Source: a bacterium
Lineage (GTDB): Bacteria; UBA8248
Direction: 5' to 3'
DNA length: 64,000 nucleotides
Assembly (NCBI GenBank): GCA_965213625.1
Contig: CBDBZU010000004.1
Location: 1,664,001 to 1,728,000, forward strand
The notes beneath the pieces were generated by a model that was given only the letters and a program-made list of their open reading frames with translations, made no database searches and was not told where the DNA came from. Made by a program: the position numbers and the translations under genes. Below are positions 47,549-64,000 of the stretch, piece after piece (position 1 is the first letter of the stretch; every line of letters starts with the position of its first letter).

Positions 47549-47580
47549 TTGACAAAGACCATCATCTTCTCTATTCTTTT
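47549..47580 (+). promoter_or_regulatory. Sigma70 promoter P1 overlapping a candidate attL core
   Basis: TTGACA-N17-TATTCT. Core TCTATTCTTTT at 47570-47580. No convincing gene directly downstream. Confidence 0.7.
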
Positions 47581-48604
47581 ATCGAACAGACCGTATCTAA
47601 CATTTCCCGGTAAACCAAATATCCCTGCAATACACTGATTTTATATTATATACGGCGAATTATCGTCCTGTTTCAGCGTTTCTGGTTCTTCTCCCTTGAA
47701 ATGAGTAATCAAACCGCAAGCGGGTTCATTACAACCCCTGCGCGTCCCGGCGAGCGCGTGTCGGGGGAAGTGTCCGGCGGCGGGGTGACGGCGTTCGTTG
47801 CAGCGCTCTGGGAATTGCTTCCGGTTAGTCCGGAGCAACCGCTGCCGGACATCCATTGGGGTTTGCCGCATCGTCCGCGTCCCGGGGTGTTCCGGATGCC
47901 TGGAAACCCGGCGTCTTCCAGGCCGGCGCTTCGGCCCGCTCCCCCCGTGCCAAGGTCCCGCTCCCGCAGGAGGGCTCCCGAGCGGAAACGCGCCGACACC
48001 CGCCGGAAATACCCCTGAGAGAGTGTCCCCGCCGGCGCGAAGCAGCGCGTCCACAGCGCTTCGCCCCCCGGCCTTTGGCAGGGACACCCTCCGTGCGGCA
48101 TGGGCCGATATGCCGGTGTTCCGCATCTCTTTTTCATTCCCCGATGAAAGCGCCTGGACCAGAGCGCCGCCCCTCCCGGCAAGCGTGAAATGCCCCATTG
48201 GTCTTTCACGACATTCCCACGAGGAGTCGCCGGGAGGGACGACTTGCCGCTTGAACCCAGGCGGCACAGCACAAGGAGGAAATGCGCGCCTGAAGCGGCT
48301 GGTTCGCGTTTTTCGCGGTACGGTGTTTTCCCTGAATCTGTAGGGGTATCGCGGCAAATATACACCGCCGCCGGGTCTTGCTCAACGGCTCCTGCTCGCG
48401 CAAGGCCCCCTCGTCGTCCACGTCCCTCATCCATCCGCCGATTGACAGGAACCCTCGAGACGGCAGGTCGTGGTGGTCGACGTCATACCGCCGCCCGCCG
48501 GCGAAAGGTGGAGGCAGTGGAGAGTCGCCTGGGACTGAGGGTGCGGGGTGGAGAGAGGCCGCCGCGCCCATCCGCCATCGACCCACGACCCGGGAGGATT
48601 TTCC

Positions 48605-48952
48605 ATGACAAACCGAAAACCATCCGCTGCGGCGCACTTGATCGTTCTCGCTGGCCCCGCTCTCGCGCTGCTCTACACCCTTATCGCCATAAGCGGCGGG
48701 AGGGGCGTCCGCTTCATCTCCGCGGCCTGGCTCCTCGCCGCGCTCTGGACCATCGTCACCGCGCTCTCGGGCGCCCTGTGGCGGGCGTACCGCAGCGACT
48801 GGTCCGCCTTCACCTCCTACACCCTTCCCGAGAGGAACGAAGAACAATTCGACTGGGAGACCCGGACGGGGCGTTACTCCTGGCGGCGTGATTACGAGGA
48901 AGGCGAGATGTACGATGATGATTATCCCTACGGTCACGGCCCCATCGCCTGA
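48605..48952 (+). CDS. Small membrane protein, hypothetical
   Basis: GGGAGG RBS, two TM helices, acidic tail. Confidence 0.65.
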   Translation: MTNRKPSAAAHLIVLAGPALALLYTLIAISGGRGVRFISAAWLLAALWTIVTALSGALWRAYRSDWSAFTSYTLPERNEEQFDWETRTGRYSWRRDYEEGEMYDDDYPYGHGPIA

Positions 48953-49341
48953 GCGTCCGGAGGTTTCACTCTCTGCCGCGTAAGCGGCGGCACGCGCCCC
49001 GTACCCCGGCATACCCCCCTGCTTGTTCGCCGCGGCGTCCGGTCCTCTTCACGGACGCCCATATTATCCGAAATCAATCCGCCCGGAAGGGATTTCGATA
49101 GTGGATTTCCTGCACCTTGCCGCCGTATGCGCTCACGTCCACCACCCCCCGCGCCGGGACTTGATAAAAAAATACGCTAAGACAGGCGGCATCCCTCTTT
49201 TCCTCCACAGGCGCGCCCCGCCCCGCCGAGAGACAGAGCCGGGCCGGGAGGGGGCGGCGGAAGGGGTCCGGGAGGGAGCCTCTCCCTCTCCGGTCAATAC
49301 CGGTCGCCGCCATCATCCACCCATTCCAAGGAGGCCGCGCG

Positions 49342-49644
49342 ATGCGAAAACCAAAACCTGAAGCCGACACCTTCCTCACCCATCTCCTGGGCCCTGGCCT
49401 GGCCGATGAGCGATACGAGGTCAGGCGATACAAATCCGATGCCCGGGGCAGCATCAGGCCCGCGCCCTCTCCTGAGAGCGGTAAGCGCAAAAGAAAACGC
49501 GTGACGGCCTCGCGCCGTGTTGTCAGGGAGATGCGTCCCGCCCGGGACGAGCTCATCATTTGTACGGGGATCAAAATCCCCGGGAGCGGCCTGCAGCTGT
49601 GGGGCGAACACCTCGTGTGGGGGCGGATGATGAGCCGGGGATGA
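49342..49644 (+). CDS. Hypothetical protein (doubtful or degraded)
   Basis: AAGGAGG RBS; no recognised domain. Confidence 0.35.
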   Translation: MRKPKPEADTFLTHLLGPGLADERYEVRRYKSDARGSIRPAPSPESGKRKRKRVTASRRVVREMRPARDELIICTGIKIPGSGLQLWGEHLVWGRMMSRG

Positions 49645-49710
49645 ACCCGCAAGACGTCTGGCCGCCCCACTGCCGTCTACACGACTTCACCGACACATGA
49701 GGAAAATCCT

Positions 49711-50523
49711 GTGCCACACAAGAATCCGAAAATTCGACGCGAGAGAGAACGCGAACGCCACAGGCGGAGGACCGAATCGCGTAGAGCGCGGAGAGCTTGC
49801 CCGAAGTGCGGCGAATACCCTCCTGCACCCGGGCGAACTCTCTGCGAATCCTGCCTCGGTAAATCCCTGACCGCCGAACGCGCCCGATACGCCAAAGCCC
49901 GGGAAGAGGGGTTCCCATATGGCGGGAGAGACCCCGAAAGCCGCCGCCGCATGGCGCGCGAGAGGGCGAGAAAACGCAGGCGCGAGCGTCTCGAGGCCGG
50001 GCTCTGCACGGCTTGCGGCGAACGGGAACCCGCCGGGGGCGCAGCCGTCTGCGAAATCTGCCGGGAAGCGAGACGCGCGGCGGAAAAGAAGCTTTATGAA
50101 AAAAGGAGATCCTCCGGGCGATGCGGTCGTTGCGGAGGCGCCGTTATCGGCAAGGCTTCGACGTGCGCTTCGTGCGCCGAAAGGGAGGTGAAGCGCCGCC
50201 CAAAGAAGAACGCCGCGAGCAGGAAACGCTATCGCGACAGACGCGCCCTCGGGATCTGCGTGGACTGCCAATCATCCGAAACCAACGGAGCATCAAGGTG
50301 CGCTTCCTGCGCCTTGCGCTCCTGGCACTCCTCGGGCGAGCACAGGGGGATGCCGGTCTTTCCGCCGCGCTACACCGTGGTGGAACTCGAAACGGGCGCA
50401 GAACACGGCCCCCTCGACTCCTGGGAGGAGGTAGCCATGTGCCTCGCCTTCAAGAGGCTCTCCCGCGATGAAATCGAGGTGGTCGAGGACGCGCCCTTGA
50501 TTTCCGGGCTCGCCGGGTGGTGA
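49711..50523 (+). CDS. Basic protein with four tandem CxxC-x11-CxxC zinc-finger-like repeats
   Basis: CPKC..CESC, CTAC..CEIC, CGRC..CASC and CVDC..CASC separated by Arg-rich helices. Confidence 0.8.
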   Translation: MPHKNPKIRRERERERHRRRTESRRARRACPKCGEYPPAPGRTLCESCLGKSLTAERARYAKAREEGFPYGGRDPESRRRMARERARKRRRERLEAGLCTACGEREPAGGAAVCEICREARRAAEKKLYEKRRSSGRCGRCGGAVIGKASTCASCAEREVKRRPKKNAASRKRYRDRRALGICVDCQSSETNGASRCASCALRSWHSSGEHRGMPVFPPRYTVVELETGAEHGPLDSWEEVAMCLAFKRLSRDEIEVVEDAPLISGLAGW

Positions 50524-50674
50524 GCGTCGCCTGAGCCGGCACGGCGGGGGTACGTACCGCCGGCGGGCCGACGACCGAGGGGGAGGGTTCGCCGCCTCCC
50601 TGCTCCGCAGCCGTCCCGTCGACCTCAGGGCGTCTGCCGGAAGCGGCCTCGCCGGGGGGGAGTCTCCGGTCCGC

Positions 50675-51049
50675 TCAACGCCCGCGCCATTCCCGAGGCA
50701 AAGCGAGTCCCGGGCGGCGGGGCCTTCGCTCGACCCGCCAGGCCGCCACCCATGCCGGGAGAGAGAGCAGGAGCGACTGATCGCCTGTGGGCAGCGTACC
50801 TGAGAAGCCCGCGACTGCGGCGCCGCCGAGCGCGGCCCACGCCACTAGGGCGGGACCCGGATAGCCCGAGCGGGCGAGACGCTTACAGGCGAGCGCCAGC
50901 GGCATGCCGCACGGAGCAACCGCCACCAACTCCACGAGAGAGGCGGGCGCCATCATTCCGGACACGGACCCCACGCGCAGAACCTCTTCCGCCATAATTC
51001 CTCCCGGCAGCCACGACAGCGCCGGAATCCAGAATTTGAGACTGGCCAT
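50675..51049 (-). CDS. Small membrane protein, hypothetical
   Basis: GAAGGAGGAGG RBS; hydrophobic segments. Confidence 0.55.
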   Translation of the reverse strand: MASLKFWIPALSWLPGGIMAEEVLRVGSVSGMMAPASLVELVAVAPCGMPLALACKRLARSGYPGPALVAWAALGGAAVAGFSGTLPTGDQSLLLSLPAWVAAWRVERRPRRPGLALPREWRGR

Positions 51050-51243
51050 GCCTCCTCCTTCCTCATGTCCGCGCGCCTTCTGACACGAATCCGCGGCAAA
51101 GGCAAGCGCCCTCCGCGAGCGCTCCCCGCCGGGTGAGAACCTCCCCGGGAGAGGTGAAGAGAAGCGGGGAGCCGGGCAAATGCCCGGTAGGGAGAGGGAG
51201 ACGGTCTCCAGTTCCCGCCGCCGGCGACAACCCGAGAGGAGGC

Positions 51244-51384
51244 ATGGCCATGTAGGAGAACGACTACGACGTCGACGTTCCCACCGCGGATGAGTTGCTC
51301 GCAGAACTCGGACTCGACGCGTACACGATCCGCAAGCTGCGCGACGAAGCGCAAGGCGAGGCGGAGGAGTTTTGCAGCGTCTAG
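51244..51384 (+). pseudogene. Small acidic ORF with in-frame TAG at codon 4
   Basis: GAGAGGAGG RBS; MAM*ENDYDVDVPTADELLAELGLDAYTIRKLRDEAQGEAEEFCSV. Confidence 0.5.
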
Positions 51385-51462
51385 GACGAACCGGGGGGGC
51401 GGGTGAGAGGATTCCCGGCTCCTCGACTTTATCATCCACACCACACTTCAAGGAGTATCAAA

Positions 51463-51903
51463 ATGGCATTCGGACTGAACCGTGCGGAACTGATCGGGCG
51501 TCTCGGCGCCGACGTTACCATCAACCATCTCGCGAGCGGGGGACGCGTCGCGAATCTATCCATAGCGACCGATGAGGGCTACGTGGACAGGCAGTCCGGC
51601 GATCGGGTGGAGAAAACAGAGTGGCATAGGATCGTGACATTCCAGCCGGGCCTGGTGGACATGCTCGAGAGGCACGCGAAGAAGGGTCGCCTGGTATATG
51701 TCGCGGGCAAGCTCCAGACCCGCCGCTGGAAGAAGGATGAGGAAGACTCGGATCGGTTCTCGACCGAGATCCTCATCGCGCCCGGCGGGGTCGTCCAATT
51801 CTTGGAAAAAATGAACGGGAACAACAACGGCAACGGCGCGCACCCCGAGACGGCCGACGTGGCGCCCACCGCGGGCGTAGTCGGGCAGGAGATTCCATTC
51901 TGA
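51463..51903 (+). CDS. ssb: Single-stranded DNA-binding protein (mobile-element type)
   Basis: LN...LIGRLG.D, TEWHR, KG..VYV.GKLQTR.W, C-terminal EIPF. Confidence 0.92.
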   Translation: MAFGLNRAELIGRLGADVTINHLASGGRVANLSIATDEGYVDRQSGDRVEKTEWHRIVTFQPGLVDMLERHAKKGRLVYVAGKLQTRRWKKDEEDSDRFSTEILIAPGGVVQFLEKMNGNNNGNGAHPETADVAPTAGVVGQEIPF

Positions 51904-52276
51904 TCACCCCGGGGGGTCGGCGCCACGCGCCGGCTCCCCTTCTTTTTTGCTCCGGATCCCGAGGAGGCCCGGTATGCCCCGAACACCCTCTCCCGCGTCT
52001 TTCCCTCCCTGCCGGCTTCTCTCGTCTACCGGGAACACCCCATAAATCTCCGGTTCCGTGAACGGTAAACCATGTTCCCGGAAGATCGGCTTGCACCTGC
52101 AAGCACTCCATGCTCAAGGCAGTGGCTCAGTCTACCCCCCGCTGCGGAAATTTCGGGCCGAATAACGGCCCGAAATGACCCTTTCCGCAGCATGAGAGAT
52201 TGTTTCCCGATGAGCTTCGCCTTCATCGTGAAACACCAAAAACTCTTGTGTCCCGGTGGCGGTACTAGTGTCTCTC

Positions 52277-52506
52277 TCTTAGCGCCCTCATTTTAGCACG
52301 AACGCCGGGCGAATAAAGGGTGGCCGCAAGCGGCCATCATTTACCGGTGCCCCCCAAAAACGTCGAGCGGCAAAAAACAGGAGCGCCGCTCTATGAACCG
52401 TGTTTTTCGGGAACCCCCCGGAAAATGACAAGCCCTTGATTCGCCCGCCTACGGGCATCGGCAACACCGCCCGATGCCCTTACGTGTTGAAAATGAGGCG
52501 CTAAGA
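52277..52506 (+). promoter_or_regulatory. Long fold-back structure, Frpo/ssi-like single-stranded promoter candidate
   Basis: Nested stems 52277-52300/52483-52506, 52306-52320/52433-52447 and 52337-52347/52418-52428, with side hairpins. Confidence 0.6.
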
Positions 52507-52541
52507 AGCGCATCCGTTAACTCTCTGGAAAGGAGAAAGGC

Positions 52542-52919
52542 ATGGAAACCACCGTGGTGAACCTGAACACATATGTCGATGAACCCGGCAGCGGCCTGCT
52601 GGTGAGGATCGACCGCATGACGAAGTGGGGAAACCCCTTCCGGCTCGGCGCCGACGGCGACAGCGACGCCGTCATCGAGAAATACCGGCGATGGCTGTGG
52701 GAAAAAATCCAGCGCGAGGAGCTCGACCTATACGAACTCGCCGACCTGCAGGGCTGCGAACTCGGCTGCCACTGCCACTGCCATCCCCTCCCGTGCCACG
52801 GCGATGTCCTCGCACGCGCCGCCGAGTGCGCAGCCAGGTATCTCGACGAGATGCCCAAAGAAGTAGGGCGCAACGAGCGTGGCTACGCTCTTCCCGAATT
52901 CAACCATCCCCTCGCTTGA
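52542..52919 (+). CDS. DUF4326 domain protein
   Basis: IDR.TKWGNPF, I.KYR.WL, L.G..LGC.C..P.PCHGDVL. Confidence 0.85.
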   Translation: METTVVNLNTYVDEPGSGLLVRIDRMTKWGNPFRLGADGDSDAVIEKYRRWLWEKIQREELDLYELADLQGCELGCHCHCHPLPCHGDVLARAAECAARYLDEMPKEVGRNERGYALPEFNHPLA

Positions 52920-53008
52920 GGACAACCGAACCACCGGCTGAAAAACCCAATCACTGAAAGGAGTGAATGATGACTGCCTCCGCGACTCACGACCGCAAGG
53001 AGAGCACC

Positions 53009-53929
53009 ATGTACGAGAACGATCACAACGATGCCCAGCATGAATCTTTCACCGCCATGGTCTGCGAGCAGGCCGCACTATTCGGCGCGACACCGGGGCC
53101 GGACGAGTTCGACAACCGCCCCGTGTGGGACGAGGGCGAGGCAACCGCCGCCGTCATCAAGGCCTTCGGCGCACTCGCGGAAGCTGCGCCCGACGGCACG
53201 CAACTCGCGGATGAGCGAAGAAACCTCCTGTGGGGGTTCGTCAACACCCTCGACGCGCAGACACAACGCCTCGAGCGCGCCGCCGACAAACTCATCCCCG
53301 GCATCCGCGAACTGCAGCGCGAGCAGGACGGCTCCGAGATCAGGTCGCGCGAACTCGAACTCATGACCGACCGCGCCCAGAACCTGAACGACAGGCGCGA
53401 TGCGTTCGAGGGGCTCAGGGACACGGCCGCAGAGGCCTACCGCATCGAGACCGGCGAGGTATGGCGGCCGAGGCGAGGATCACACGTCTCACAGACCGGC
53501 AAACTGACCTCCGCCGTGATCGAGGCGCGCGACTTCCAGCGCGCCAGAAAGGACCGCGAGAACACCGCACACTTGCCGCAGGGAACTCTCGTCGCCGTCG
53601 CGGGAGGCAAGGAGGCGAGCGATGCGGGTAAAATCATCGCACACCTCGACCGCCTTAAGGCCAAGTACGCCGATGTCGTCCTCGTCCACGGCGGCGGCCC
53701 CGGTGCGGAGAAGATAGCGGCGGGATGGGCCGAGCGGAACGGCGTCAACCAGGTCGTGTGTAAACCGGATTGGGATGCCCACGGACGGGCCGCTCCCTTC
53801 CGCAGGAACGACGAACTCCTGGCACTCCTGCCCAAGGGCGTGATCGCGTTCCCCGGCAGCGGCATCACCGACAACCTCGTCGACAAGGCAAAAACCCTCG
53901 GCATCCCCGTCCAGAAAATCGTCGCCTGA
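53009..53929 (+). CDS. DUF2493 (YspA/SLOG-like) domain protein of conjugative elements
   Basis: LWGFVN, EQDGSE, W.PR.GS, LVHGG..GAE.IA..WA, AAPFRRND, FPGSGIT.NL. Confidence 0.85.
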   Translation: MYENDHNDAQHESFTAMVCEQAALFGATPGPDEFDNRPVWDEGEATAAVIKAFGALAEAAPDGTQLADERRNLLWGFVNTLDAQTQRLERAADKLIPGIRELQREQDGSEIRSRELELMTDRAQNLNDRRDAFEGLRDTAAEAYRIETGEVWRPRRGSHVSQTGKLTSAVIEARDFQRARKDRENTAHLPQGTLVAVAGGKEASDAGKIIAHLDRLKAKYADVVLVHGGGPGAEKIAAGWAERNGVNQVVCKPDWDAHGRAAPFRRNDELLALLPKGVIAFPGSGITDNLVDKAKTLGIPVQKIVA

Positions 53930-54598
53930 TGCGGGAGCTCAACGGGTCGCGTCGCCCGGCGGCGCGGCCCGTTCTTCTCCTCCTTCATTTGCCGCTGTAC
54001 TTGCCTCCCCGTATTACTCTCCTCCTCTCCTCTCGCTCAGTCGCCGCGGCGGCTCCCGTTCGCCATCTTCTCCGGCGTCGATTCCCCTGTCGCTTGTCCC
54101 ACGGATTCGACCATCTGACGCCCTTCGGCGCTTCGGGTTACACACCGGAACGCAGCAGGCTGCGAAGTTCCGGCATACGACGACCGGGCTACTCTCCCGT
54201 CTCATGTCGGCGACACAGGGCGCCAGGCGCATTGCGGATCGAGCGTATGCTCAGAGCATACACAATCTTTCTCATCCCTGACGGCGCATGGCTGCGCAAG
54301 TCGCGCATGGATACCGGATCCGTCGCAATCGGTGGCGTTCCGTAATACAATGTGTTACGGCCCGCATTACGTTAGTATGCTTCCGATTCTGGCCGTTTCG
54401 CGGTGCGCCGGGGCCGCCACCTGTGCGGAGCGCTCTCTCGCAGATGGCCGCAAGCCCCTGAATACGGGACGTTGAATCGAGCGTAGACGGTCCCGGATAC
54501 GCCCTGATTTTCGCCCCGAACCAAGCCGTCGGAACCCGGAAAGGGCGAGCGATGCGGTCCGTATCGCCACCCGATCTTGTCCTGAGGAAGAGAAAAAG

Positions 54599-54985
54599 AT
54601 GACGCGAAACGACCCGAATCAGCCCGAAAAGAGCAAAAAATCAGCGGAAAAACCGGGCGAACCGAGAGCGCCGCACTCGGTTCGCTTCACCGGTTCGGAA
54701 TGGAAATTGATTAAACGAGCCGCCGAACTGCACGGTATTGCGGCCGGTGAACTCGTCCGCAACGGCGCGATGGCCGCTGTCGAGGAGCTGCTCGACGAGC
54801 CTCCAGAGGCCACCCTGTCGCATGGTCATGCCGCCCTCATCGAGTCCGTCTACCGCATGGTCTACGTGATGGCGACCCTGGATCGGGGACGATTGATCGA
54901 CGCCGGGCGCGGGAAAGAGCTCGAGGACCTCATCGCCGCGGCGCACAGAACGATGGCCGAGACCATGGACGAAGGCACAGGGTGA
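54599..54985 (+). CDS. Hypothetical ribbon-helix-helix-like DNA-binding protein
   Basis: HSVRFT..EW..I..AA..HG....ELVR pattern. Confidence 0.6.
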   Translation: MTRNDPNQPEKSKKSAEKPGEPRAPHSVRFTGSEWKLIKRAAELHGIAAGELVRNGAMAAVEELLDEPPEATLSHGHAALIESVYRMVYVMATLDRGRLIDAGRGKELEDLIAAAHRTMAETMDEGTG

Positions 54986-55330
54986 ATGCAGAGGGCGGCG
55001 CGATGCGTGCGTAAGCCGGTTTATCGGTTGCAAATTTGTTGCAAGAACCCGCGAATCGGGCCCGGTCGGACCGCGTTCAGAGCCCCAGGTCCATCTCGAT
55101 CCGCTTCCCGGGGCCGGGTTCGGGTGTCTTCGCGTGCGGCGTTTCCCGTCCGTTTTTCATGCCCGGGGAAGAGGAATCGGAGAGTCCATTCGGGTAAAGT
55201 CCAGATTGCACGGCAACCTTTCGGCCAAAGACACTTGAACACGGAACATTCCGAAGCCCGCTTCAAGAATGTCTCCAACTTGTGTTGCCGGCTTCTGTGT
55301 ATTATATTTATATATAACTTGGAGGATTTC

Positions 55331-55588
55331 ATGCACACGACAAATCTGCGCAAAGTCGGTGGTTCCATCATGCTAGCCGTTCCACCTGCCCTTCTTGACC
55401 TCCTGAAACTCGGGGTCGGCGCGAAGGTGGAAATAGACGTGGAGGACGGTCGCCTGATCGTCGAGCCCAAAGCACGTCCCGTCTATTCACTCGATGAGCT
55501 TCTCGCGCAATGCGTAGAGACCTCTACGCAGCCCGCCGAGGACCGCGCCTGGATTGAGGCCAGACCAGTTGGCAAAGAGTTGTTGTAG
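55331..55588 (+). CDS. pemI: AbrB/MazE-family antitoxin (PemI-like)
   Basis: MHTTNLRKVGGSIMLAVPP...YSLDELLAQC...W.....GKELL. AT-rich palindromic operator upstream. Confidence 0.85.
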   Translation: MHTTNLRKVGGSIMLAVPPALLDLLKLGVGAKVEIDVEDGRLIVEPKARPVYSLDELLAQCVETSTQPAEDRAWIEARPVGKELL

Positions 55589-55920
55589 TGAAGCGGGGTG
55601 AAATCTGGCTCGTCAGCCTCGACCCCACCGCAGGCCATGAACAACAGGGTACCCGTCCGGTACTGATCGTATCCCCAGACCCGTTCAATAGACTCACCGG
55701 GACGCCCGTGGTCTTGCCGATCACATCGGGCGGCGACTTTGCGCGCAGGGCAGGTTTCGCAGTTTCTCTCTCGGGCGCGGGTACCCGAACAACCGGTGTC
55801 GTCCGTTGCGACCAGCCGAGGTCCCTTGATCTCGCTGCCCGCAACTGGGCGCGTCTCGAAACCGTTCCTGAACTTATTATGGACGAAGTGCTTGCCCGAA
55901 TCGCCACCATCCTCGAATAA
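55588..55920 (+). CDS. pemK: PemK/MazF-family endoribonuclease toxin
   Basis: RGEIWLVSLDPTAGHEQQGTRPVLIVS...FN, PIT, DQ.R.LD. Confidence 0.9.
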   Translation: MKRGEIWLVSLDPTAGHEQQGTRPVLIVSPDPFNRLTGTPVVLPITSGGDFARRAGFAVSLSGAGTRTTGVVRCDQPRSLDLAARNWARLETVPELIMDEVLARIATILE

Positions 55921-56231
55921 AAAGTGATTGTTCGTCTTCAAGGCCGGACGGCACTTATCAGTGATTTCCCGTTTCGGGTCCCAGTTCTTGCGAATAACGC
56001 TAATTTGCCAATGCAATAGAGGGAGCGGCACCGATTGGCTTAATCGGTCCTGGTTCAGGGAGAGGTGAGGAGCGAAATTTCGTGCCTTGGAGCGTCAGGT
56101 GGGAAGATCGGTAAACGTAATGAATGTGATCGTACGTCAGCTTCATTTTTTTCTCCTGTTGGGTATGGATGAAAAAATTGGGGAATTGTAACCCAAAGTT
56201 GACAAGATTTTTAGGATAAATATCTACCCCG

Positions 56232-56729
56232 CTATTGGACTATTTCTACAGAGCGCCTGGCCTTTTTGTACTCGACATTCAAACGATGTACCGTCTTAAT
56301 CAACTCGGAAGACTTGCCGAAAACTACGAACATCAACTTATTTTTCCAATGGATTGCAGTTGAAAAACTTCCATGAGGAAGCCTTTTTTGATCCGTTCGA
56401 TGCACCACCATGATAAGAGCTTCAAATTCTTCGGCGGGTAGATTCTGGATTTCATCAATCAAGATGATGATCGAAGATTTGCGCGCCTTCGCTGCCTCGC
56501 CCGCGGCGACAAACACCTCGGCAAAATCACGGGCTAGCGTGCCGCTGTCGGCAACTCCTGGTTCACCATCTATGTCTAAGAAAAATTCAATATCCTCAAC
56601 CTTGATCTTGACCGCACCAACAAAACTCTTTAGAACGCGCAAACTCCTTTTTACATGTTCACTAACCCCCTTGATTCGATCAAGCTTCAGCAAGATCGAG
56701 CGCAAAGTGGCAATAATCGTTTTCGACAA
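56232..56729 (-). pseudogene. Fragment of an AAA-type ATP-binding protein
   Basis: Walker B-like IILIDEIQ and G.ADSG.L, but no Walker A and truncated ends. Low GC. Confidence 0.6.
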
Positions 56730-57218
56730 AATTCGTTCGTGCTGATTTCGATAAAGTCTGTGAGTGCGTATTCTTTAGATTTTGTTTGGAGGTGTAGCTA
56801 TTGAACTCAAGAGGAATTGAGAAGGGCTATAAGTCTTAGTGAATCAGAATCAATGCCTACTTGGTTGCCGGTTTCAGATACAGCATAACGTGCTCACCGC
56901 TCAATACAAGATATTGATTTCACTTCGTCATGTGTATAATCACGGATAAAATCGCGGAGTCTACTGGTGATGGGGTTCAATACGAGCGTCGGCGCCTTCG
57001 TATACTTGATCGAATACCATCACCTGAAAGCCGGAGTTTCTATTGATTTATTGGTCAGGCTCGGAAGTGAAGCGGTGAAATTGAAGTTCCTGGTGCACAC
57101 AGCTATCGATGCTCGAGGACGTTAAATGTATGACCCGAGTCGTCCAATACGGCGTGTTAATTCGCAAGTCGTCTGGTGGTACTAGAGAAACACGAGCAAC
57201 TGACGAGGAGGTGACTTC

Positions 57219-57518
57219 ATGAACCCCAAAATAACCATACCGAAACCCGCGCTTTCCGCCTTCTGTCGGGAGAACGGTATCCGCCGGCTTTCCGTCTTCG
57301 GCTCGGCCTTGGGTGAGGATTTTGGACCCGGGAGCGATATAGACCTTCTCGTCGAATTCGAGCCGGAAGCTAGAATCGGCTTCATGAAACTGGCCAGGAT
57401 GCAAAGGGAGTTGGCGGCCATCATTCACCGCAAGGTGGATCTGGTTCCCCAAGATGGATTGAAGCCGAAAATACGAACGGAGGCGCTTTCGGGCGCGGAA
57501 GTGATCTATGCGGCGTGA
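57219..57518 (+). CDS. MNT-family nucleotidyltransferase antitoxin
   Basis: LSVFGS......SDIDLLVEF, KVDLV. Confidence 0.9.
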   Translation: MNPKITIPKPALSAFCRENGIRRLSVFGSALGEDFGPGSDIDLLVEFEPEARIGFMKLARMQRELAAIIHRKVDLVPQDGLKPKIRTEALSGAEVIYAA

Positions 57519-57864
57519 GGAACTCTACCTCGCCGACATGCTGGAGGCTGCGGACGCCATCGGCCGATTCCTTCTGGAAACCGAGCAACATTCGTTCATC
57601 GCGGACGACCTGCTGCGTAGCGCCGTCCTGCATAAATTGGCGGTCATCGGCGAAGGAGCAACCCGGTTGTCCGATGCGTTTCAGGCGCGCCATCCCCAAA
57701 TCGAATGGGGAGACATCGTGGCGTTTCGCAACATCATCGTTCACGCCTACTTTTCTGTGGATTGGCCTATCGTCTGGGTGACGGCGACACAGGACGTTCC
57801 GGAACTTCGGCGCGGAATCGCCCGGATACTTGCGGAAGAATACCCCGACTGGGAAGCACGGTAA
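57508..57864 (+). CDS. HEPN (DUF86) toxin
   Basis: IGE, I.W.....RN...HAY..VD...VW with the Rx4H motif RNIIVH. Confidence 0.9.
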   Translation: MRREELYLADMLEAADAIGRFLLETEQHSFIADDLLRSAVLHKLAVIGEGATRLSDAFQARHPQIEWGDIVAFRNIIVHAYFSVDWPIVWVTATQDVPELRRGIARILAEEYPDWEAR

Positions 57865-58196
57865 CCTTCCTCGAGCCGCGCAGAAACAATAAACGGCATG
57901 GAACCAGATGGGCGCGAAGGGGAGAACAATCTAGTCAGGCGGATATGTCGTCCCGCCCCTGAACTCTCAAACGCCCTTGTCCGCAGGTGTGGTGACTCCG
58001 ATTTCTCCGCGCAGGAGGCGCCTGAAGGTGGCCCGTCGCCACCCGTTCCTGCACCGGGCGATCCTGCGTCCGACGCGGTTCCGCCTGCCGGCGGGCATCG
58101 AAGCCGAGCGCCCGTCGATCCAAGAGGTATATTCCGCTTGGCGCTGCTCGATGAGCGAAACCCGGCCGTCCCGTTGATGCGGCGTTTCGAGGAGAA

Positions 58197-59010
58197 TTGA
58201 CACGCGAACAGCGCGCTGCCACAGATTCCCTGTTCGCGCACGAGACCGGCGTAAGTGCCGCCGCGTCCGGGTTCGGCAAGACGGTCGTCGCAGCATTGAT
58301 GATAGCTGAGCGCGGCGTGAAGACGCTCATCCTCGTTCATCGCCGCCAGCTGATGATGCAGTGGATTGCGCGGCTTGGTGTTTTTCTCGATCTTACTACT
58401 TCCGCCATCGGACGGGCCGGGGGCAGGAAACGCAAGCTTAGCGGGGTCATAGACGTCGCCACGCTCCAGAGTCTGGAGCGCAAAAACGTGGTGGACGACC
58501 TCGTCGCCGACTACAGGCACCTCGTGGTCGACGAGTGCCACCACTTATCTGCGGTGAGCTTCGAGGTGGTGGCGCGCCGCGCCAGGGCGAGGTACGTGCT
58601 CGGGTTGTCTGCGACCATCATGCGCAAGGAGCACGCCGGGGAACTCGCCGGGAAGATCGGGCGCTTCGCGCGAAACGTCCTGCTCTTCAGAGGCGGCATG
58701 GAAGAGAGAGCGCCGCGAGATCATGCAGCGCCTGGAAGACATACCCGACGGCGAGGAGCGGGTACTGGTCGTGACCGGCCGCTATATCGGAGAGAGATTC
58801 GACGATGTCCGCCTCGACATGCTGTTCCTCGCGATGCCCGTGTCGTGGCGGGGAACGCTGGCCCAGCACTTCGGCCGCCTGCACCGGCTCCATTCAAAAA
58901 AACGCGAAGGTGCTAGTCTACGAATATATCGACGACGCGGTGCCGGCGCTCAGGCGTTATGGGCGGCAGTCGCGTCAAGGGCTACGAGAGCCTCGGCTAC
59001 ACAGTCGAGT
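58197..59010 (+). pseudogene. Degraded DEAD/DEAH-box (SF2, restriction-type) helicase
   Basis: SGFGKT, VDECHH and GLSAT, then an internal deletion and frameshifts. Helicase C motifs (GRYIGE.FD, GRLHR) lie in another frame. Confidence 0.75.
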
Positions 59011-59449
59011 GGCCCGGCGTCCCAAGCGGAACGTGAACTTACAGGCCCGGGCGAGTATGGCGCTGACGTTATTACGGTCGCGTGATCCGGACAAGGTGAA
59101 GATATAGGCCTGCCTGACGGCGGCAGGCGATCTCAAACGGTTCAGTGCCGCTCATTTTTCTAGGTTATGTACCCCTTGGAGGGCTCTTGCATCAACTGGA
59201 ATCGCCGTACGAATATCCATGAAGCTTACAAACCCCACGGTCTCGATCTACCTGAACCCAAGTAATACAAACCGTTCCGAACCCAATTCCTCACCTTATT
59301 TCATAAAGCAGGTGGTTTATGTACGTGGGGCAGTCCTTGGGAGGAGCTGCCACCTGCGAATCAATCATTCTCTTTGGGCCTACTCCCCCACCCCTGCATA
59401 AATATATCCTTGTCCTGAGGCGAGGAATGCTTCAAAGAACTCCACACAC

Positions 59450-59478
59450 AAAAAACCGGGGGGCCGAAGCCCCCCGGT
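59450..59478 (-). terminator. Rho-independent terminator of the porin gene
   Basis: Minus strand ACCGGGGGGC-TTCG-GCCCCCCGGT followed by a T-run. Confidence 0.85.
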
Positions 59479-59519
59479 CGTCATCGCGTCAGGTAAGGAC
59501 TCGAGCGTCCTTCATGCTG

Positions 59520-60746
59520 CTAGAATGAATGCCTCAACCGCCAGCTGACCACCCACCCGTCATCGGGCTCAGTCGCGTTGGCCGCTCTGCCGTAGTCGCC
59601 GCGCAGGATGACGGCGCCAACAGCGCGAAGCTCGGTACGCGGATGTATTTTCCACTTGAAGCCGGCGTTGAGCTCGGTGCCGAATTCCTTGGAAGTATCC
59701 ATATTATCTCCGGGATGACTTTCTGCGGAGTTGTAAACGGATACGCCACCACCCAGCGAAAATGTTTTGCTGATCTTGTACTCGCCTATTCCCTCGAGCA
59801 CAACCGCGCCGTTCAAATTTTTCAAAGTAACGTCTTTCAGATCGTTATTGATACTATCCCAGCGGCGCGAACTCATGATGTGAGAACCGTGGAGCCAACC
59901 GGAACCATTGTTTTGAGGGAAATGGAATTTACCCGTTTCGCCGTCTTTGCCTTCGTCATCGCCGGAGAGCATCGTGAGGTTGCCCTCGAGTTTCAGCTTG
60001 CCCAGGCTTGCGGAAGTCCTCACCAAGACGGCCCATCCCGAAAGATCCGTCCCTCCATCGAGCTCACCATCCTGGCCGACGACCGAGGCGTTCAAGTTGA
60101 AGATGCCTACCTTGCCCTTGGCGTGGAGACCGAAGAAGCTGTAGTCATAACCGTTATTCGCTCCGTTTCTGGAATTGGCCAGCCAAGGAGAGAGCGTGAG
60201 AGTGGGCGACACTTTGACGCCCACGCTGGCATAGTAATCCTCTTTATCGGCGTTGGCTTCGCTCTTGTCTTCACTAGCCTTGACATAAAACATGCTGAGC
60301 GACATGTTCTTGCTGAGCTTGCCATAGACCCCGACGCCCGGCTCGCGAGTCCGTCCGCCGCTGTCGTAGATTTCCTTATCTGGCGAGAAGCGATCCCAAC
60401 GGCCCCAACGCATGCGGAGCGTGCTGCCCGGGATCGCGAAGTCGATCGCCCAGCGGTTCACACCTAGGGTCTGACGACTGGCATTGGTGAAACCGCCGTG
60501 CGGGCTTTGAAATTCGGGCTCCCACACGGTTGTGACTGCGCCGCTCTTCACCGTGAATCGCGGGCGGATGAGCGCTTCGAGGTAATTATCCTTGTCGTCT
60601 GCGTCATCGTCCCCGTCTTTGTTGGCGTTATTGCTGGTGCCGCGCACCTGATAGAGACCGGTCATCTTGAAGTCGGCCGCATACGAGGGCAAGGTGAATG
60701 ACAAGACGAGCGCCATCGCAAATAGAGCTAACAGAATTTTCCTCAT
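59520..60746 (-). CDS. Outer-membrane beta-barrel porin-like protein
   Basis: Signal peptide MRKILL...SYA|ADF, amphipathic beta-strands, C-terminal WRLRHSF, GAGGAG RBS. Confidence 0.8.
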   Translation of the reverse strand: MRKILLALFAMALVLSFTLPSYAADFKMTGLYQVRGTSNNANKDGDDDADDKDNYLEALIRPRFTVKSGAVTTVWEPEFQSPHGGFTNASRQTLGVNRWAIDFAIPGSTLRMRWGRWDRFSPDKEIYDSGGRTREPGVGVYGKLSKNMSLSMFYVKASEDKSEANADKEDYYASVGVKVSPTLTLSPWLANSRNGANNGYDYSFFGLHAKGKVGIFNLNASVVGQDGELDGGTDLSGWAVLVRTSASLGKLKLEGNLTMLSGDDEGKDGETGKFHFPQNNGSGWLHGSHIMSSRRWDSINNDLKDVTLKNLNGAVVLEGIGEYKISKTFSLGGGVSVYNSAESHPGDNMDTSKEFGTELNAGFKWKIHPRTELRAVGAVILRGDYGRAANATEPDDGWVVSWRLRHSF

Positions 60747-60829
60747 GTGTATTTCTCCTCATCGAGGTTTCAAAAAAATGTTGCCGCCTTCCTTCGTTTT
60801 AATGTCCTGATTGTTCGATGCTTCTGAAT

Positions 60830-61001
60830 CTGTGCTTCGTCGCCTGAAACAGGGCTTCCCGCTCTCACATCACCCCCTCTCTTCAATACTGCCCCGTACG
60901 TCGACAAGGTTCTATCGAGCGATCTGATAATTGCCGCTTATGTAGACACTATCCCATTAGTAAAAATAGTCATTCCATTCTTCATTTCTCAAAAGAATAG
61001 A
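60830..61001 (-). repeat. Inverted repeat left arm (porin 5' leader plus -10 core)
   Basis: Exact reverse complement of 63829-64000 (172/172). Confidence 0.95.
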
Positions 61002-61278
61002 AAAGATATGATTTAAAAGCTAAAACGCCGACAATCATGCGCATGGATGCGCTCATGCATGATAAATACATGTTTTTAATTTATTTATAATTACACTTTC
61101 TTCCGCGTTGCCTCTTGCGCCATCGCCAGATTTGTGCTGGAATGCGCTCTCAGTTGATGCGGGACGTATGCGTTATGATGACGTATTTTGACGGGAGCGC
61201 CGCACCGGAGCATGCGGATGGGCGTTCCCGCAGACCGCCGCAGGCATGCGGTTTGATGACACACCGGAGGGAGGAACC

Positions 61279-62463
61279 ATGCCGAGGAGAAGCGAATTCA
61301 GGCTCACCAAGCGCGCCGTCGACGCGCTCGAAACCGAACGCCGCGACGCCCTGTTCTGGGACCGGGATCTGGCCGGATTCGGGGTGCGCGTCCACGCCAC
61401 GGGACGGAAGGTTTTTGTCGCGCAATCGAGAGGCCCCAGGGGGATAAAACGCGTGACCCTGGGCCGTGACGGGGAGATGTCGTGCGAGGAGGCGAGGAGG
61501 CAGGCCGCCATCGTCATCGACCGCATTAAAAGCGGCGAGGACCCCGTCCCGAAGCCGCCTGAGGCGGAACCCACCCTGGGGGAGATCGCCGAACGCTTCA
61601 TGAGCACATACGTGGAGAGGCGCCTCAAGCCGGGCAGCGTCGTGGAGTACCGCACCATGCTGGACAAATACATCCTGCCAGCCCTGGGCGGGATGGCGCT
61701 GTCCGAGGTCAGGCGGGCGCAAATCTCCGCGTTTCATCACGGCATGCGCGGCATGCCGAGCCGGGCGAACACGTCGCTCCACGTCCTCTCCCGGATGCTC
61801 AGCCTGGCCGAGGCGTGGGACCTCATCCCGCCCGGACGGAACCCGTGCAGGGGAGTGCCGCTCTACAAGACGCGCTCGCGCGAGCGGTTCCTGACGACGG
61901 AGGAATACCGCCGCCTGGGCCGGACGTTAAAAGAAGCCGAGGCGGACGGCTCGATCTGGTCGCCCGCGATCAAGGCGATCCGGCTGCTCATGCTGACCGG
62001 ATGCCGGAGGAACGAGATACTGAACCTTAAGTGGGACGATGTGGACCGCACGGCGGGCGTTCTGAGGCTCAGGGACGCCAAGGCGGGCCCCCGCATGGTT
62101 CCCCTGACGAATCCCGTGCTGAGGGTTCTCGAGACGCTCCCCCGGAAGCGGGGCGAGCCATGGGTGATCCCCGGGCAGAACCCGGGCCAGAACCTGCGGA
62201 GCCTTCACTACTACTGGCGGCGCATACGGGAGCGGGCGGGTCTCTCCGACGTGCGGATCCATGACCTGCGCCATTCGTTCGCTTCGCGTGCGCTTGCGCT
62301 GGGCGAGAGCCTCTACACGATCGGCAAGCTTCTGGGACACGCGACGGTGCCGACGACGGCGCGCTACACGCACCTGATGCTCCGGGCCGAGAAGGATGCG
62401 GCCTCCCGTGTGGGGGGAAGCATCGGCGTTCACCTGACGAACGAGAAGGAGGAACTTGAATGA
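61279..62463 (+). CDS. Tyrosine recombinase/integrase 1 (arm-binding domain)
   Basis: WD..L.GFG.RV arm domain; TGCR..E, DAKAG, HDLRH.FAS, LLGH, TARY all intact. Confidence 0.93.
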   Translation: MPRRSEFRLTKRAVDALETERRDALFWDRDLAGFGVRVHATGRKVFVAQSRGPRGIKRVTLGRDGEMSCEEARRQAAIVIDRIKSGEDPVPKPPEAEPTLGEIAERFMSTYVERRLKPGSVVEYRTMLDKYILPALGGMALSEVRRAQISAFHHGMRGMPSRANTSLHVLSRMLSLAEAWDLIPPGRNPCRGVPLYKTRSRERFLTTEEYRRLGRTLKEAEADGSIWSPAIKAIRLLMLTGCRRNEILNLKWDDVDRTAGVLRLRDAKAGPRMVPLTNPVLRVLETLPRKRGEPWVIPGQNPGQNLRSLHYYWRRIRERAGLSDVRIHDLRHSFASRALALGESLYTIGKLLGHATVPTTARYTHLMLRAEKDAASRVGGSIGVHLTNEKEELE

Positions 62464-63629
62464 AGAAGCCGGGCACGATGGTGCTGTCGAGCCGGATGGT
62501 GGAGAAGTTTGCCGTGGAAAAAGACACGGTGTACTGGGATAGTTACGTCACCGGCTTCGGCGTCAGGGTGTATCCGAGCGGGAGCAAGGTCTACATCGCC
62601 CAGGCGCGGGGGCCCGGGGGGCCGAAGCGCGTGACGATAGGCCGCCACGGGGTGATCAACGCGGATGAGGCGAGAAGGCGCGCGGCGCTCGTCATCAATC
62701 GCATCAAGTCGGGCGAGGAGGGGGTTCCAAAACAGACGAAGCCCGTGCCCGGTCCCACGGTGGCCGAAGCCGCCGCGCGGTATCTCGCCGAATACGTGGA
62801 GGTGCGCTGTAAGCCGCACACCGCCGCCATGACCCGGTCGCTACTCGGAAGACGCATCTTGCCCGCCCTGGGCGGGACGCCGCTCGCGGTGGTGGAGCGC
62901 GCGCAGGTGGCGGAACTGCACCAGAGCATGCACGAGACGCCCCCGACGGCGAACAGGACAGTCGGCATCCTCTCCGCGCTATACCGGTATGCCGAGAGGT
63001 GGGGCCTCATTCCCGAGGGAGCGCCGAACCCCTGCCGCGCCGTCGTCAAATTCCCCAAGCGACAGGGGGAGCGTTTTTTGACGGATGAAGAGTTCATCCG
63101 CCTGGGACGCACACTCGATGAGGTGGAGAAAAGCAAGCCGAAGTACGCGAACGCGGTGGCGGCGATCAGACTTCTGGCCCTGACGGGGTGCCGGAAGTCG
63201 GAAATCCTCACCCTGCGCTGGGAGAACGTGGCGCTGGAAGAGGGGGAATTGAGACTGCCCGATTCCAAGACGGGCGCCCGCGTGATATCGCTCCCGCCGC
63301 AGGCGGTCGCTCTCCTGGCCGCCCTGCCCCGGGAGGAAGGGAATCCCTGGGTGATTCGCGGCAGGAAGCCGGGCGTTCGCCTGATGAATATCTATGGCGT
63401 TTGGCACTACGTCCGAGCGCGGGCGGGTCTCGATGACGTGCGCCTCCACGACCTCCGCCACTCGTTCGCGTCCAGAGCGCTCGCGCTGGGCGAGAGCCTT
63501 CCGATGATCGGCAGGCTCCTGGGGCACAGCCGCATTGAGACCACGGCGCGCTACGCGCACCTAGCGCGCGATACCGCGTACGAAGCGGCCGAGCGGGTTG
63601 CGGCGAGCATCGAGAAAGACATACTATGA
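62460..63629 (+). CDS. Tyrosine recombinase/integrase 2 (paralog of 1)
   Basis: WD....GFG.RV; TGCRKSE, DSKTG, HDLRH.FAS, LLGH, TARY. ATGA-coupled to recombinase 1. Confidence 0.93.
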   Translation: MKKPGTMVLSSRMVEKFAVEKDTVYWDSYVTGFGVRVYPSGSKVYIAQARGPGGPKRVTIGRHGVINADEARRRAALVINRIKSGEEGVPKQTKPVPGPTVAEAAARYLAEYVEVRCKPHTAAMTRSLLGRRILPALGGTPLAVVERAQVAELHQSMHETPPTANRTVGILSALYRYAERWGLIPEGAPNPCRAVVKFPKRQGERFLTDEEFIRLGRTLDEVEKSKPKYANAVAAIRLLALTGCRKSEILTLRWENVALEEGELRLPDSKTGARVISLPPQAVALLAALPREEGNPWVIRGRKPGVRLMNIYGVWHYVRARAGLDDVRLHDLRHSFASRALALGESLPMIGRLLGHSRIETTARYAHLARDTAYEAAERVAASIEKDIL

Positions 63630-63806
63630 GAGGCAATCGACGGGGTGGACGAAAAGAACCGGACTGGCCGGGTTCGTGTGCTCGTTTTTTTGAAATTTTC
63701 AGATTCGGGGTTTGACGAATCAGTCTATCTTCGCTAATACTATGTCTATGTGGAATAGGGTGACTGATTCCGAAAGATTTCTTTTCGGATTCAGGTGGGA
63801 AGTTTG

Positions 63807-63839
63807 TTGACAAAATATAAATTTTCGATCTATTCTTTT
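63807..63839 (+). promoter_or_regulatory. Sigma70 promoter P2 overlapping a candidate attR core
   Basis: TTGACA-N18-TATTCT. Upstream GGAA.GTTTGTTGACAAA is shared with P1. Confidence 0.7.
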
Positions 63840-64000
63840 GAGAAATGAAGAATGGAATGACTATTTTTACTAATGGGATAGTGTCTACATAAGCGGCAAT
63901 TATCAGATCGCTCGATAGAACCTTGTCGACGTACGGGGCAGTATTGAAGAGAGGGGGTGATGTGAGAGCGGGAAGCCCTGTTTCAGGCGACGAAGCACAG
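63829..64000 (+). repeat. Inverted repeat right arm (second copy of the porin leader; runs off the window)
   Basis: Exact reverse complement of 60830-61001. Confidence 0.95.

Follow-up and report, generated by a model that had tools for sequence, protein, structure and literature searches.

The window analyzed here is a 64,000-nucleotide (nt) stretch of contig CBDBZU010000004.1 (GenBank assembly GCA_965213625.1, positions 1,664,001 to 1,728,000 of the forward strand) from a bacterium of the GTDB lineage UBA8248. It contains an integrative element with two tandem tyrosine integrase genes, int1 and int2, which interrupts the promoter of a porin gene (porinR) and carries a second porin gene (porinL). 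The element, a member of a multi-copy family, probably recombines at the -10 hexamer of the porin promoter and doubles as a promoter-swapping switch between the two porin alleles. The insertion lies at a short core sequence, the window has three such sites, the integrases are intact, the locus is found in two arrangements in two species, and the integrase module is conserved among species. The module has also been retained in species that have lost the cargo of the element. An earlier sequence-only reading of the window had described a pair of attachment sites and an insertion in the -10 box, both of which held up. Its layout of a plain attL/attR pair did not, because a third, inverted core with the second porin had been missed. 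The locus is more than such a pair because of this inverted third core, the other layouts found in five species, and the reversed segment in the genome of the closest relative (G020).

The locus was compared in 10 other species of the same genus (genomes G002 to G022). This porin-locus comparison comprised 11 species; 12 further genomes of the genus lay outside it. A flanking chromosomal gene, which encodes an FG-GAP repeat protein with an LpoB-like part (45358-47277, + strand; Pfam FG-GAP_3, E 2.3e-19), lies to the left of the element. Its orthologues were found in 22/22 other genomes of the genus (72-88% DNA identity), and it is the left neighbor of the porin promoter in the species with an empty site. 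In G008, G017, G002, and G022, the locus is uninterrupted and reads FG-GAP gene, TTGACA-N17-TATTCTTT, leader, porin, aminotransferase gene, and serA. The aminotransferase gene and serA are located 3' of the porin in all 11 species examined. The homology of the four empty sites to the window leaps from 47579/47580 to 63840, and their promoter and leader join exactly at the core. Therefore, the 16,259 base pairs (bp) between the direct cores, which are absent from these four species, are an insertion with its ends in the core. The proposal that the element had entered the -10 box of the porin promoter was thus borne out, and none of the four empty sites places the boundaries elsewhere. A related element occupies the same left junction in G020, with 88% identity across the junction. 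In G018 and G010, the promoter match adjoins the FG-GAP gene, an arrangement that resembles the empty state as far as the match position alone indicates.

The core 9-mer TATTCTTTT occurs in the window at 47572-47580 (+), 60991-60999 (-), and 63831-63839 (+); in each case it forms the -10 half of a porin-type promoter or of what remains of one. The expected count for the window is 0.14, and three copies were reached in 0/100 shuffled sequences. Over the 4.13-Mb contig, the 9-mer was counted 35 times. Extended by the preceding TC to the 11-mer TCTATTCTTTT, it has four copies in the 4.13-Mb contig, three of which lie within the window. The fourth (C4:2983287) is just ahead of the ribosome-binding site of an unrelated secreted-protein gene.

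Promoters were called by consensus scans only. Site 1 (core TCTATTCTTTT, 47570-47580, +) reads ...catcatcttctc TATTCTTTT atcgaacag. Its left arm is P1, the native porin promoter (47549-47577, +; TTGACA-17-TATTCT), and its right arm is P', the first part of the element; G020 has the same junction. P1 is homologous to the promoter immediately 5' of the porin leader in G008, G017, G002, and G022, and is now directed into the element. Site 3 (63829-63839, +) reads ...aaattttcgatc TATTCTTTT gagaaatg and joins P2 on the left to the porinR leader on the right. P2 (63807-63836, +; TTGACA-18-TATTCT) is borne by the insert and faces porinR in this arrangement. The suggestion that the element brings a replacement -35 agrees with this TTGACA, 18 nt upstream of the shared -10, and the -35 region of P2 is a diverged copy of P1 (39 nt at 72%). 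A terminator-like hairpin (63669-63684) lies 3' of int2, ahead of P2. Site 2 (61001-60991, - strand, inverted) has as its left arm B*, the region 5' of int1 (61002-61245, +), which has no -35 directed at the core, and as its right arm the leader of porinL. In the contigs of two of four public sequencing runs (X3 and X6), an extra C directly follows 61001, the outer edge of site 2. Runs X4 and X5 match the window at 61001/61002, and the extra C is either a strain difference or an error at the presumed crossover edge.

The two porins are both intact and 69% identical. PorinR is located beyond the window end (L001:3084-4313, +), followed by the aminotransferase gene and serA, and its 244-nt leader runs past the window end (63840-64000 and L001:2840-3083, +). 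PorinL (59520-60746, - strand) has a leader of the same length (60747-60990, -) and identical sequence, with no TTGACA-type -35 upstream of it in this arrangement. No further porin paralogues were found elsewhere in the genome. A perfect inverted repeat of 282 nt, of which 172 nt lie within the window, spans the core, the leader, and the first 27 nt of both porin genes. It flanks int1-int2-P2, with sites 2 and 3 at its inner ends, and the identity ends at the outer edge of the core. PorinL is closest to the single resident porin of G008 (82.5%). Since the porinL type is the sole porin of that species, the element appears to supply another allele of the very gene at whose promoter it inserts.

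The porin family is predicted from a structural model to be an outer-membrane beta-barrel porin. The model (16 family members) had a predicted local distance difference test score (pLDDT) of 73.8 and a barrel of about 18 strands. The top Foldseek matches were AlgE (E 7e-15, TM score 0.65), Campylobacter jejuni MOMP, and OccK/OprD, and the NCBIfam model DESULF_POR1 (Desulfovibrio-type trimeric porin) matched with an E of 4e-13, below its cut-off. The signal peptide MRKILLALF...SYA and the ...RHIF end are present in 14/16 aligned proteins, and the insertion and deletion hot spots of the alignment fall on low-confidence loop segments of the model. The 244-nt leader, a long 5' untranslated region, is strongly conserved over nine species; it has long invariant blocks in mid-leader, where conservation is higher than in the first 45 nt next to the core. 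Covariation was found in 1/45 pairs of its predicted consensus structure.

int1 (61246-62463, +) encodes a P4-type tyrosine integrase with Arm-DNA-bind_3, SAM-like, and Phage_integrase domains. int2 (62460-63629, +) overlaps it by 4 nt and encodes a paralogous tyrosine integrase, 51% identical to Int1. Both proteins scored above the cut-off for Pfam Phage_integrase (E 7.6e-24 for Int1 and 4.1e-21 for Int2), and Arm-DNA-bind_3 (E 2e-11 and 1.4e-7, respectively), Phage_int_SAM_3, and Phage_int_M also matched; both have the arm-binding, core-binding, and catalytic domains of arm-domain P4-type integrases. In an alignment of Int1 with XerD, the catalytic residues (R, H-x-x-R, H, and Y) were aligned in the motifs LTGCRRNE, HDLRH, LLGH, and ARYTH. 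The corresponding motifs of Int2 are LTGCRKSE, HDLRHSFAS, LLGH, and ARYAH. Membership in the IntDes subgroup, which a passage of one report defines by a tyrosine in place of the first histidine of the RKHRH pentad (PMC8138268), was rejected, since both integrases have HDLRH and retain that histidine. The end of int2 is about 200 nt from site 3, which places the integrases at one end of the insert. The reading frames of int1 and int2 are open in seven species.

The 2.8-kb segment between the inverted cores (61002-63828) contains int1, int2, and P2. The sequence-only reading had proposed looking for homologous recombinases at porin promoters elsewhere, and an orthologous integrase pair was found at the porin locus of 7/11 species examined. 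A promoter segment with recombinases between inverted cores is present in six other species in addition to the window. The layout in G011, G012, G013, and G016 is porin (-), leader, inverted core, B*, int1, int2, a promoter with TTGACA, core, leader, porin (+), and the downstream genes. These four species have no cargo and no third core, and their module is in the window orientation. In G014, whose module is likewise in the window orientation, the FG-GAP-promoter-porin unit is unbroken, and 20.8 kb further upstream is a porin that lacks a promoter and has an inverted core; the 20.8 kb between the cores contain int1, int2, a TPR gene, the FG-GAP gene, and P1. Exactly one core has a TTGACA -35 in each of G011, G012, G013, G014, and G016. 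A contig fragment of G021 reads int2, then promoter and core.

G020, the closest relative, has the order FG-GAP-A, P1, core, P', cargo, porinX (-), inverted core, P2 (-), int2 (-), int1 (-), B*, core, leaderY, and porinY. Compared with the window and with the downstream genes, the B*-int1-int2-P2 segment is thus flipped, and its breakpoints fall exactly at the 10-bp core. The left-hand porin has P2 directly against its core, and the porin beside the aminotransferase gene has B* in that position. Identity between the G020 and window arms is about 90%, and in both loci the boundary of arm and core falls on the same base. Both orientations are therefore represented between species, with G020 on one side and the window genome (G000), G011, G012, G013, and G016 on the other.

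The retention of int1-int2 between inverted cores together with a promoterless porin in five species that have neither the cargo nor the direct-repeat pair is difficult to reconcile with a plain genomic island. In such an island, sites 1 and 3 would be attL and attR, the porin with its core would be captured cargo, and the G020 orientation would be a rare accident with no regulatory role. This explanation accounts for the direct repeats, the empty sites, the integrases at one end of the insert, and a cargo family that is multi-copy and looks mobile. It leaves unexplained why the silent porin copies keep a perfect core and why the breakpoints of the G020 flip fall exactly at the core. The 282-nt leader identity, compared with about 75-80% identity across the rest of the genes, also suggests continuing exchange. 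The shared promoter orientation in 6/7 species fits an island, as does the fact that population heterogeneity was not seen in the contigs of the four public runs, which are uninformative on this point. Overall, we consider a plain island unlikely, although it deserves real weight.

The length of the repeats bears on the type of recombination. In G020, the leaders diverge right after the core, which leaves an inverted repeat of about 10 nt, and the sequence shared at the two sites in G011, G012, and G016 is 11-12 nt. Repeats this short point to site-specific rather than homologous recombination. The opposite explanation is that homologous recombination occurs between long identical porin 5' regions, as in the sapA system of Campylobacter fetus, with the integrases as bystanders. 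The perfect 282-nt inverted repeat of the window and the long, identical or near-identical leaders of G013 and G014 would allow this. It is very improbable in our judgment, given that G020, G011, G012, and G016 share only 10-12 nt (TCTATTCTTT plus 0-2 nt) and G020 is flipped nonetheless, that the repeat identity of the window ends precisely where the core does, at its outer edge, and that a dedicated integrase lineage travels with the core.

For the switch, the following mechanism is proposed. The native state is one gene for an outer-membrane porin of about 18 strands, with a sigma-70-type promoter, TTGACA-N17-TATTCT, and a 244-nt leader. An element lineage with two tandem P4-type integrases would recombine at the 10-bp core TCTATTCTTT, which contains the -10 hexamer. 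In the window, the cargo, the promoterless porinL, int1, int2, and P2 lie between direct cores, and P1 is parted from the resident porin. In the window arrangement, P2 would supply the -35 for the resident porinR, P1 would read into the element, and B*, with no TTGACA, would face porinL. The inverted third core would make the 2.8-kb int1-int2-P2 segment invertible. Inversion between sites 2 and 3 would let P2 drive porinL and leave the resident porin facing the -35-less B*, and inversion between sites 1 and 2 (13.4 kb) would place porinL under P1. Excision between sites 1 and 3 would yield a 16.26-kb circle with P2-core-P' and B*-core-leaderL and would restore P1-leader-porinR. Excision of the direct pair from the G020 state would instead yield the joint B*-core-P'. 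From the layout of the locus, we infer that Int1 and/or Int2 exchange strands within TCTATTCTTT and do so now, that flipping is frequent, and that B* is transcriptionally silent. The benefit may, as a guess, be variation of a surface-exposed porin, for example as a phage receptor.

A wider scheme, which we put forward tentatively and regard as possible rather than probable, is a 'split-promoter shufflon'. Three upstream halves (P1, P2, and the empty arm) would be permuted among three downstream halves, namely the resident porin, the element-borne porin allele, and the leading transcript of the element with its conserved hairpin. One set of sites would serve integration, excision, and porin phase variation, and the state of the element would be coupled to the porin displayed. 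A use of such coupling could be, for example, the exclusion of phages or rival elements that have the porin as receptor.

Several points weigh against an active switch. Since the core is the -10 box, promoter function by itself accounts for some of its conservation. The 'silent' porin may be leaky rather than off, because a weaker promoter-like site, TTGAGA-18-TATTTT (9/12), is present in both leaders (63838-63867, +, and 60992-60963, -); it starts in the last two bases of the core, and its -10 part is poorly conserved in sister species. The promoter faces the porin next to the downstream genes in 6/7 species, so flipping is possibly rare. The orientation in the window rests on assembly across the perfect 282-nt repeat; the contrast between G020 and four short-repeat species is independent of that assembly. 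More than one inversion separates the window from G020: the left-hand porins of the two loci are non-orthologous alleles, with 45% identity between G020 porinX and porinR, and G020 carries the FG-GAP gene twice. The switch-only layouts, in which the insert lies between the FG-GAP gene and P1 or upstream of the TPR gene, do not follow from simple integration at the core and are explicable only by extra deletions or inversions. The contigs of the four public runs gave no direct evidence of recombination within one population.

The G020 element carries the second FG-GAP copy, together with the last 90 nt of the TPR gene, about 27 kb past the left junction and in tail-to-tail orientation with the left-hand porin; this copy is 79% identical to that of the window. 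If the two FG-GAP genes of G020 recombined, P1, the third core, and the cargo would be deleted, which would give the layout of G011 and G012.

The locus could also be a fossil of one or a few past rearrangements with sites no longer used, that is, a fixed two-promoter locus with one expressed and one decaying porin. A fossil would explain why the contigs show no direct sign of present activity, why typical transfer genes have been lost, and why the cargo contains a helicase fragment and 2 kb in which no gene is convincing. A decaying locus would hardly be expected to have porinL, int1, and int2 intact and without stops, with counterparts in six other species in the same state, or to have three cores that are all perfect 11-mers and leaders that are freshly homogenized. 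We rate a fossil as quite improbable and retain the active switch as the preferred explanation.

The four public runs contain the locus as contigs, one of which bridges site 1 as in the window. The contigs confirm the local junctions P1-core-P', B*-core-30 nt, and P2-core-30 nt. They end 30 nt inside each end of the 282-nt repeat (60972 and 63858), where the repeat is collapsed and the orientation is unreadable. No excision or circle joint and no joint linking 47580 to 63840 was found in the contigs of the four runs, which weighs neither way. In all four runs (X3-X6), contig depth drops about two-fold from 47-48.6 kb to the integrase genes (about 63 kb). The block from SSB to the YspA-like gene is 5- to 15-fold deeper, as expected for a multi-copy family. 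Three small contigs of the assembly (C1-C3) were considered as alternative forms of the locus and were rejected. A degenerate pattern of the P2 arm had no match in metagenome contigs. The core with P' had no match in viral contigs and one chance match in an unrelated low-GC metagenome contig.

The sequence-only reading had also offered, as support for real attachment sites, the dyad symmetry restored when the flanks are joined in silico. Both joints were re-read and are as it gave them: the P2 flank joined to the flank after site 1 reads TTCGAT-C-TATTCTTTT-ATCGAA, and the P1 flank joined to the leader reads TTCTC-TATTCTTTT-GAGAA. The contiguous inverted arms of these two recombinant joints are 5 and 6 nt, compared with 1 and 2 nt at the present junctions of sites 1 and 3 and at most 2 nt in each of the four remaining arm combinations. 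When flanks of similar composition were drawn at random, P(>=5) was 0.0057 and P(>=6) was 0.0016, and both arms were obtained in 0/200,000 random pairs. The dyad spacers are unequal (9 and 10 nt), which puts them one base out of register. In G020, where the site is occupied by the same element, only 4/6 matches are left at the P2 x P' joint, and these are non-contiguous. The contiguous arms measure 2-5 nt at 12 promoter-core-leader sites in 10 sister species, and the full TTCTC-N9-GAGAA is found in G014 only. TC-TATTCTTT, in contrast, is invariant in all but one of the compared promoter-core-leader sites. The dyads are thus unlikely to have arisen by chance in this genome but are not conserved among relatives, the invariant part being TC-TATTCTTT, and they give weak support. 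The strong evidence for the insertion is the empty sites, not the dyads. At dif, the site of XerC and XerD, the half-sites are asymmetric. By analogy, asymmetric half-sites would be unsurprising where two different integrases act.

Relatives of Int1 and Int2 gave 22 matches in this genome, and 18/23 genomes of the genus had a match at E 1e-40 or better. About 10 integrase loci are present in this genome, mostly as tandem pairs, some of which are broken. No tRNA gene was found within 3 kb of any of the 10 integrase loci, which agrees with the earlier proposal of a promoter rather than a tRNA gene as the target. Of the integrase pairs in this genome, the window pair alone stands between inverted porin genes. 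A search of the genome contigs with Int1 returned three close loci, already in the set, and otherwise relatives of 25-42% identity in metagenome-assembled genomes. For the Int1 tree, 30 loci were kept and one partial row was dropped; one long-branch row is Int2-like. Among 29 homologues, the Int1 proteins encoded at the porin locus of the seven species cluster in a single branch (support 100/100). Because location defined this group, the branch describes it and does not test it independently. Only the porin-locus rows and the G021 fragment contain the 10-nt core, which was found in 0/22 other paralogue loci. Two integrase pairs, C4:5721-8082 and C4:190478-192839, have near-identical 3-kb upstream and identical 330-nt downstream flanks. 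They represent a large duplicated segment or two element copies, about 185 kb apart.

P2-core-P', the attP-like joint of the earlier reading, would not necessarily be the working attP. The joint reads as described, and the G020 arrangement would instead excise as B*-core-P'. The region after int2 in the paralogous pair p7 has weak collinearity with P', which would weakly favor P2-core-P' as the contiguous backbone. The B* arm is homologous to the int1-upstream regions of five paralogous pairs up to 14-33 nt from the core; therefore, site 2 sits at the end of the family-conserved part. This position favors B* as a probable terminal arm. In the paralogous elements p2 and p3, a search for direct repeats that would mark the element ends, from the region upstream of int1 to the hairpin-motif end, gave nothing convincing. 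Either B*-core-P' or P2-core-P' may be the usual attP of the family.

The cargo (47581-59440, +) comprises the P' arm, a hairpin motif, and genes that were assigned with Pfam and NCBIfam. These encode a zinc-ribbon protein, SSB, a DUF4326 protein, a YspA-like SLOG protein, a RelB/NikA-like protein, a MazE-like protein, and a helicase fragment; the cargo also holds a low-GC stretch. The GC content is 62-72% over 47.6-55 kb and 46-61% in the flank bins. The cargo is missing from the empty-site species. Copies of the 48.5-55 kb block (70-86% identity) are located beside about ten integrase pairs of the genome. The first approximately 2 kb (47581-49700) have no convincing open reading frame, with Arg-, Pro-, and Gly-rich translations on both strands, and are nevertheless 86-89% conserved in G020.

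The hairpin GTAATCAAACCGCAAGCGGGTTCATTAC (47705-47732, context 47638-47790) lies about 125 nt after site 1 and is preceded by an AT-rich, promoter-like stretch. The segment of about 60 nt around it has 79-89% identity in 14/23 genomes of the genus, with up to seven copies each, and is present at six other places in this genome. Some copies of the hairpin are changed on both sides of the stem. No Rfam match was obtained over 44-64 kb at E up to 0.1. The hairpin could function as a small RNA, as a 5' untranslated region element, or as a site at which elements of the family are transferred or recombine.

In the literature searched, mostly outside subscription journals, neither a tandem integrase pair flipping a porin promoter nor a crossover in a -10 box was found described. 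The individual features have counterparts in known systems. The fim switch of Escherichia coli has two adjacent paralogous recombinase genes, fimB and fimE, and an invertible element, fimS, with inverted repeats of about 9 bp. The window resembles it in having two adjacent paralogous tyrosine recombinase genes by a short promoter element with short inverted repeats. Unlike in fim, the invertible segment of the window encloses the recombinase genes themselves, and because the -10 hexamer is within the repeat, only the -35 half changes place. The choice is also between two genes rather than ON and OFF, and the enzymes are arm-domain P4-type integrases of a mobile family. One report describes the inversion of promoter elements by tyrosine recombinases in uropathogenic E. 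coli (PMC6083910).

The H segment of Salmonella carries the gene of a serine invertase, Hin, and an outward promoter, and the second flagellin is controlled via a repressor. A recombinase gene and an outward promoter on the segment, and a choice between two surface antigens, are common to both. Unlike Hin, which is a repressor-mediated serine invertase system with no third site and no link to integration, the window has tyrosine integrases and a third site. In the vpma locus of Mycoplasma agalactiae, a unique promoter is used for several surface-protein genes, the shared 5' regions hold the recombination site, and the adjacent Xer1 is essential; the sites lie in the 5' untranslated region (-1 to -72), and one recombinase acts (PMC2268961). 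The window resembles vpma/Xer1, and likewise M. bovis vsp and M. pulmonis vsa, in that a promoter serves surface-protein genes with a site in the shared 5' region. It differs in its crossover in the -10 box, its recombinase pair, and its integrative element. The window and G020 also have two -35 arms (P1 and P2) and one empty arm rather than a single promoter; the single-promoter feature of the vpma/vsa type is present in G011, G012, G013, G014, and G016.

The sapA locus of C. fetus undergoes RecA-dependent inversion of a promoter between opposed surface-protein genes with identical 5' regions, with no dedicated recombinase. The window similarly has an invertible promoter between oppositely oriented surface-protein genes with identical 5' regions. 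Unlike in sapA, only 10-12 nt are shared at the sites in four species (G020, G011, G012, and G016); a long repeat of the sapA type is present in G000 (282 nt). For prophage HK022 at torS, one report describes a change in host gene expression via an element-encoded promoter (PMC6814406). Prophage excision that restores a host gene is also described. The window is like HK022/torS in that an integrated element alters a neighboring host gene through its own promoter. It is unlike HK022/torS in that the crossover in the -10 hexamer makes hybrid promoters and that a second target allele and an inverted third site are present.

Promoter inversions and integrative elements are each well known. The locus described here is unusual in its crossover site, for which the -10 hexamer of a housekeeping porin promoter is used; in its recombinases, which form a tandem pair belonging to a multi-copy family of integrative elements; and in its cores, which bound both the insertion and the invertible promoter segment. 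For annotation, 'attL/attR plus integrase' beside duplicated surface-protein genes may be a switch and not a passive island. If active, the locus would provide a compact set of sites and enzymes that is testable on a plasmid, and it would show an integrase element turned into, or doubling as, a phase-variation switch for a major surface protein.

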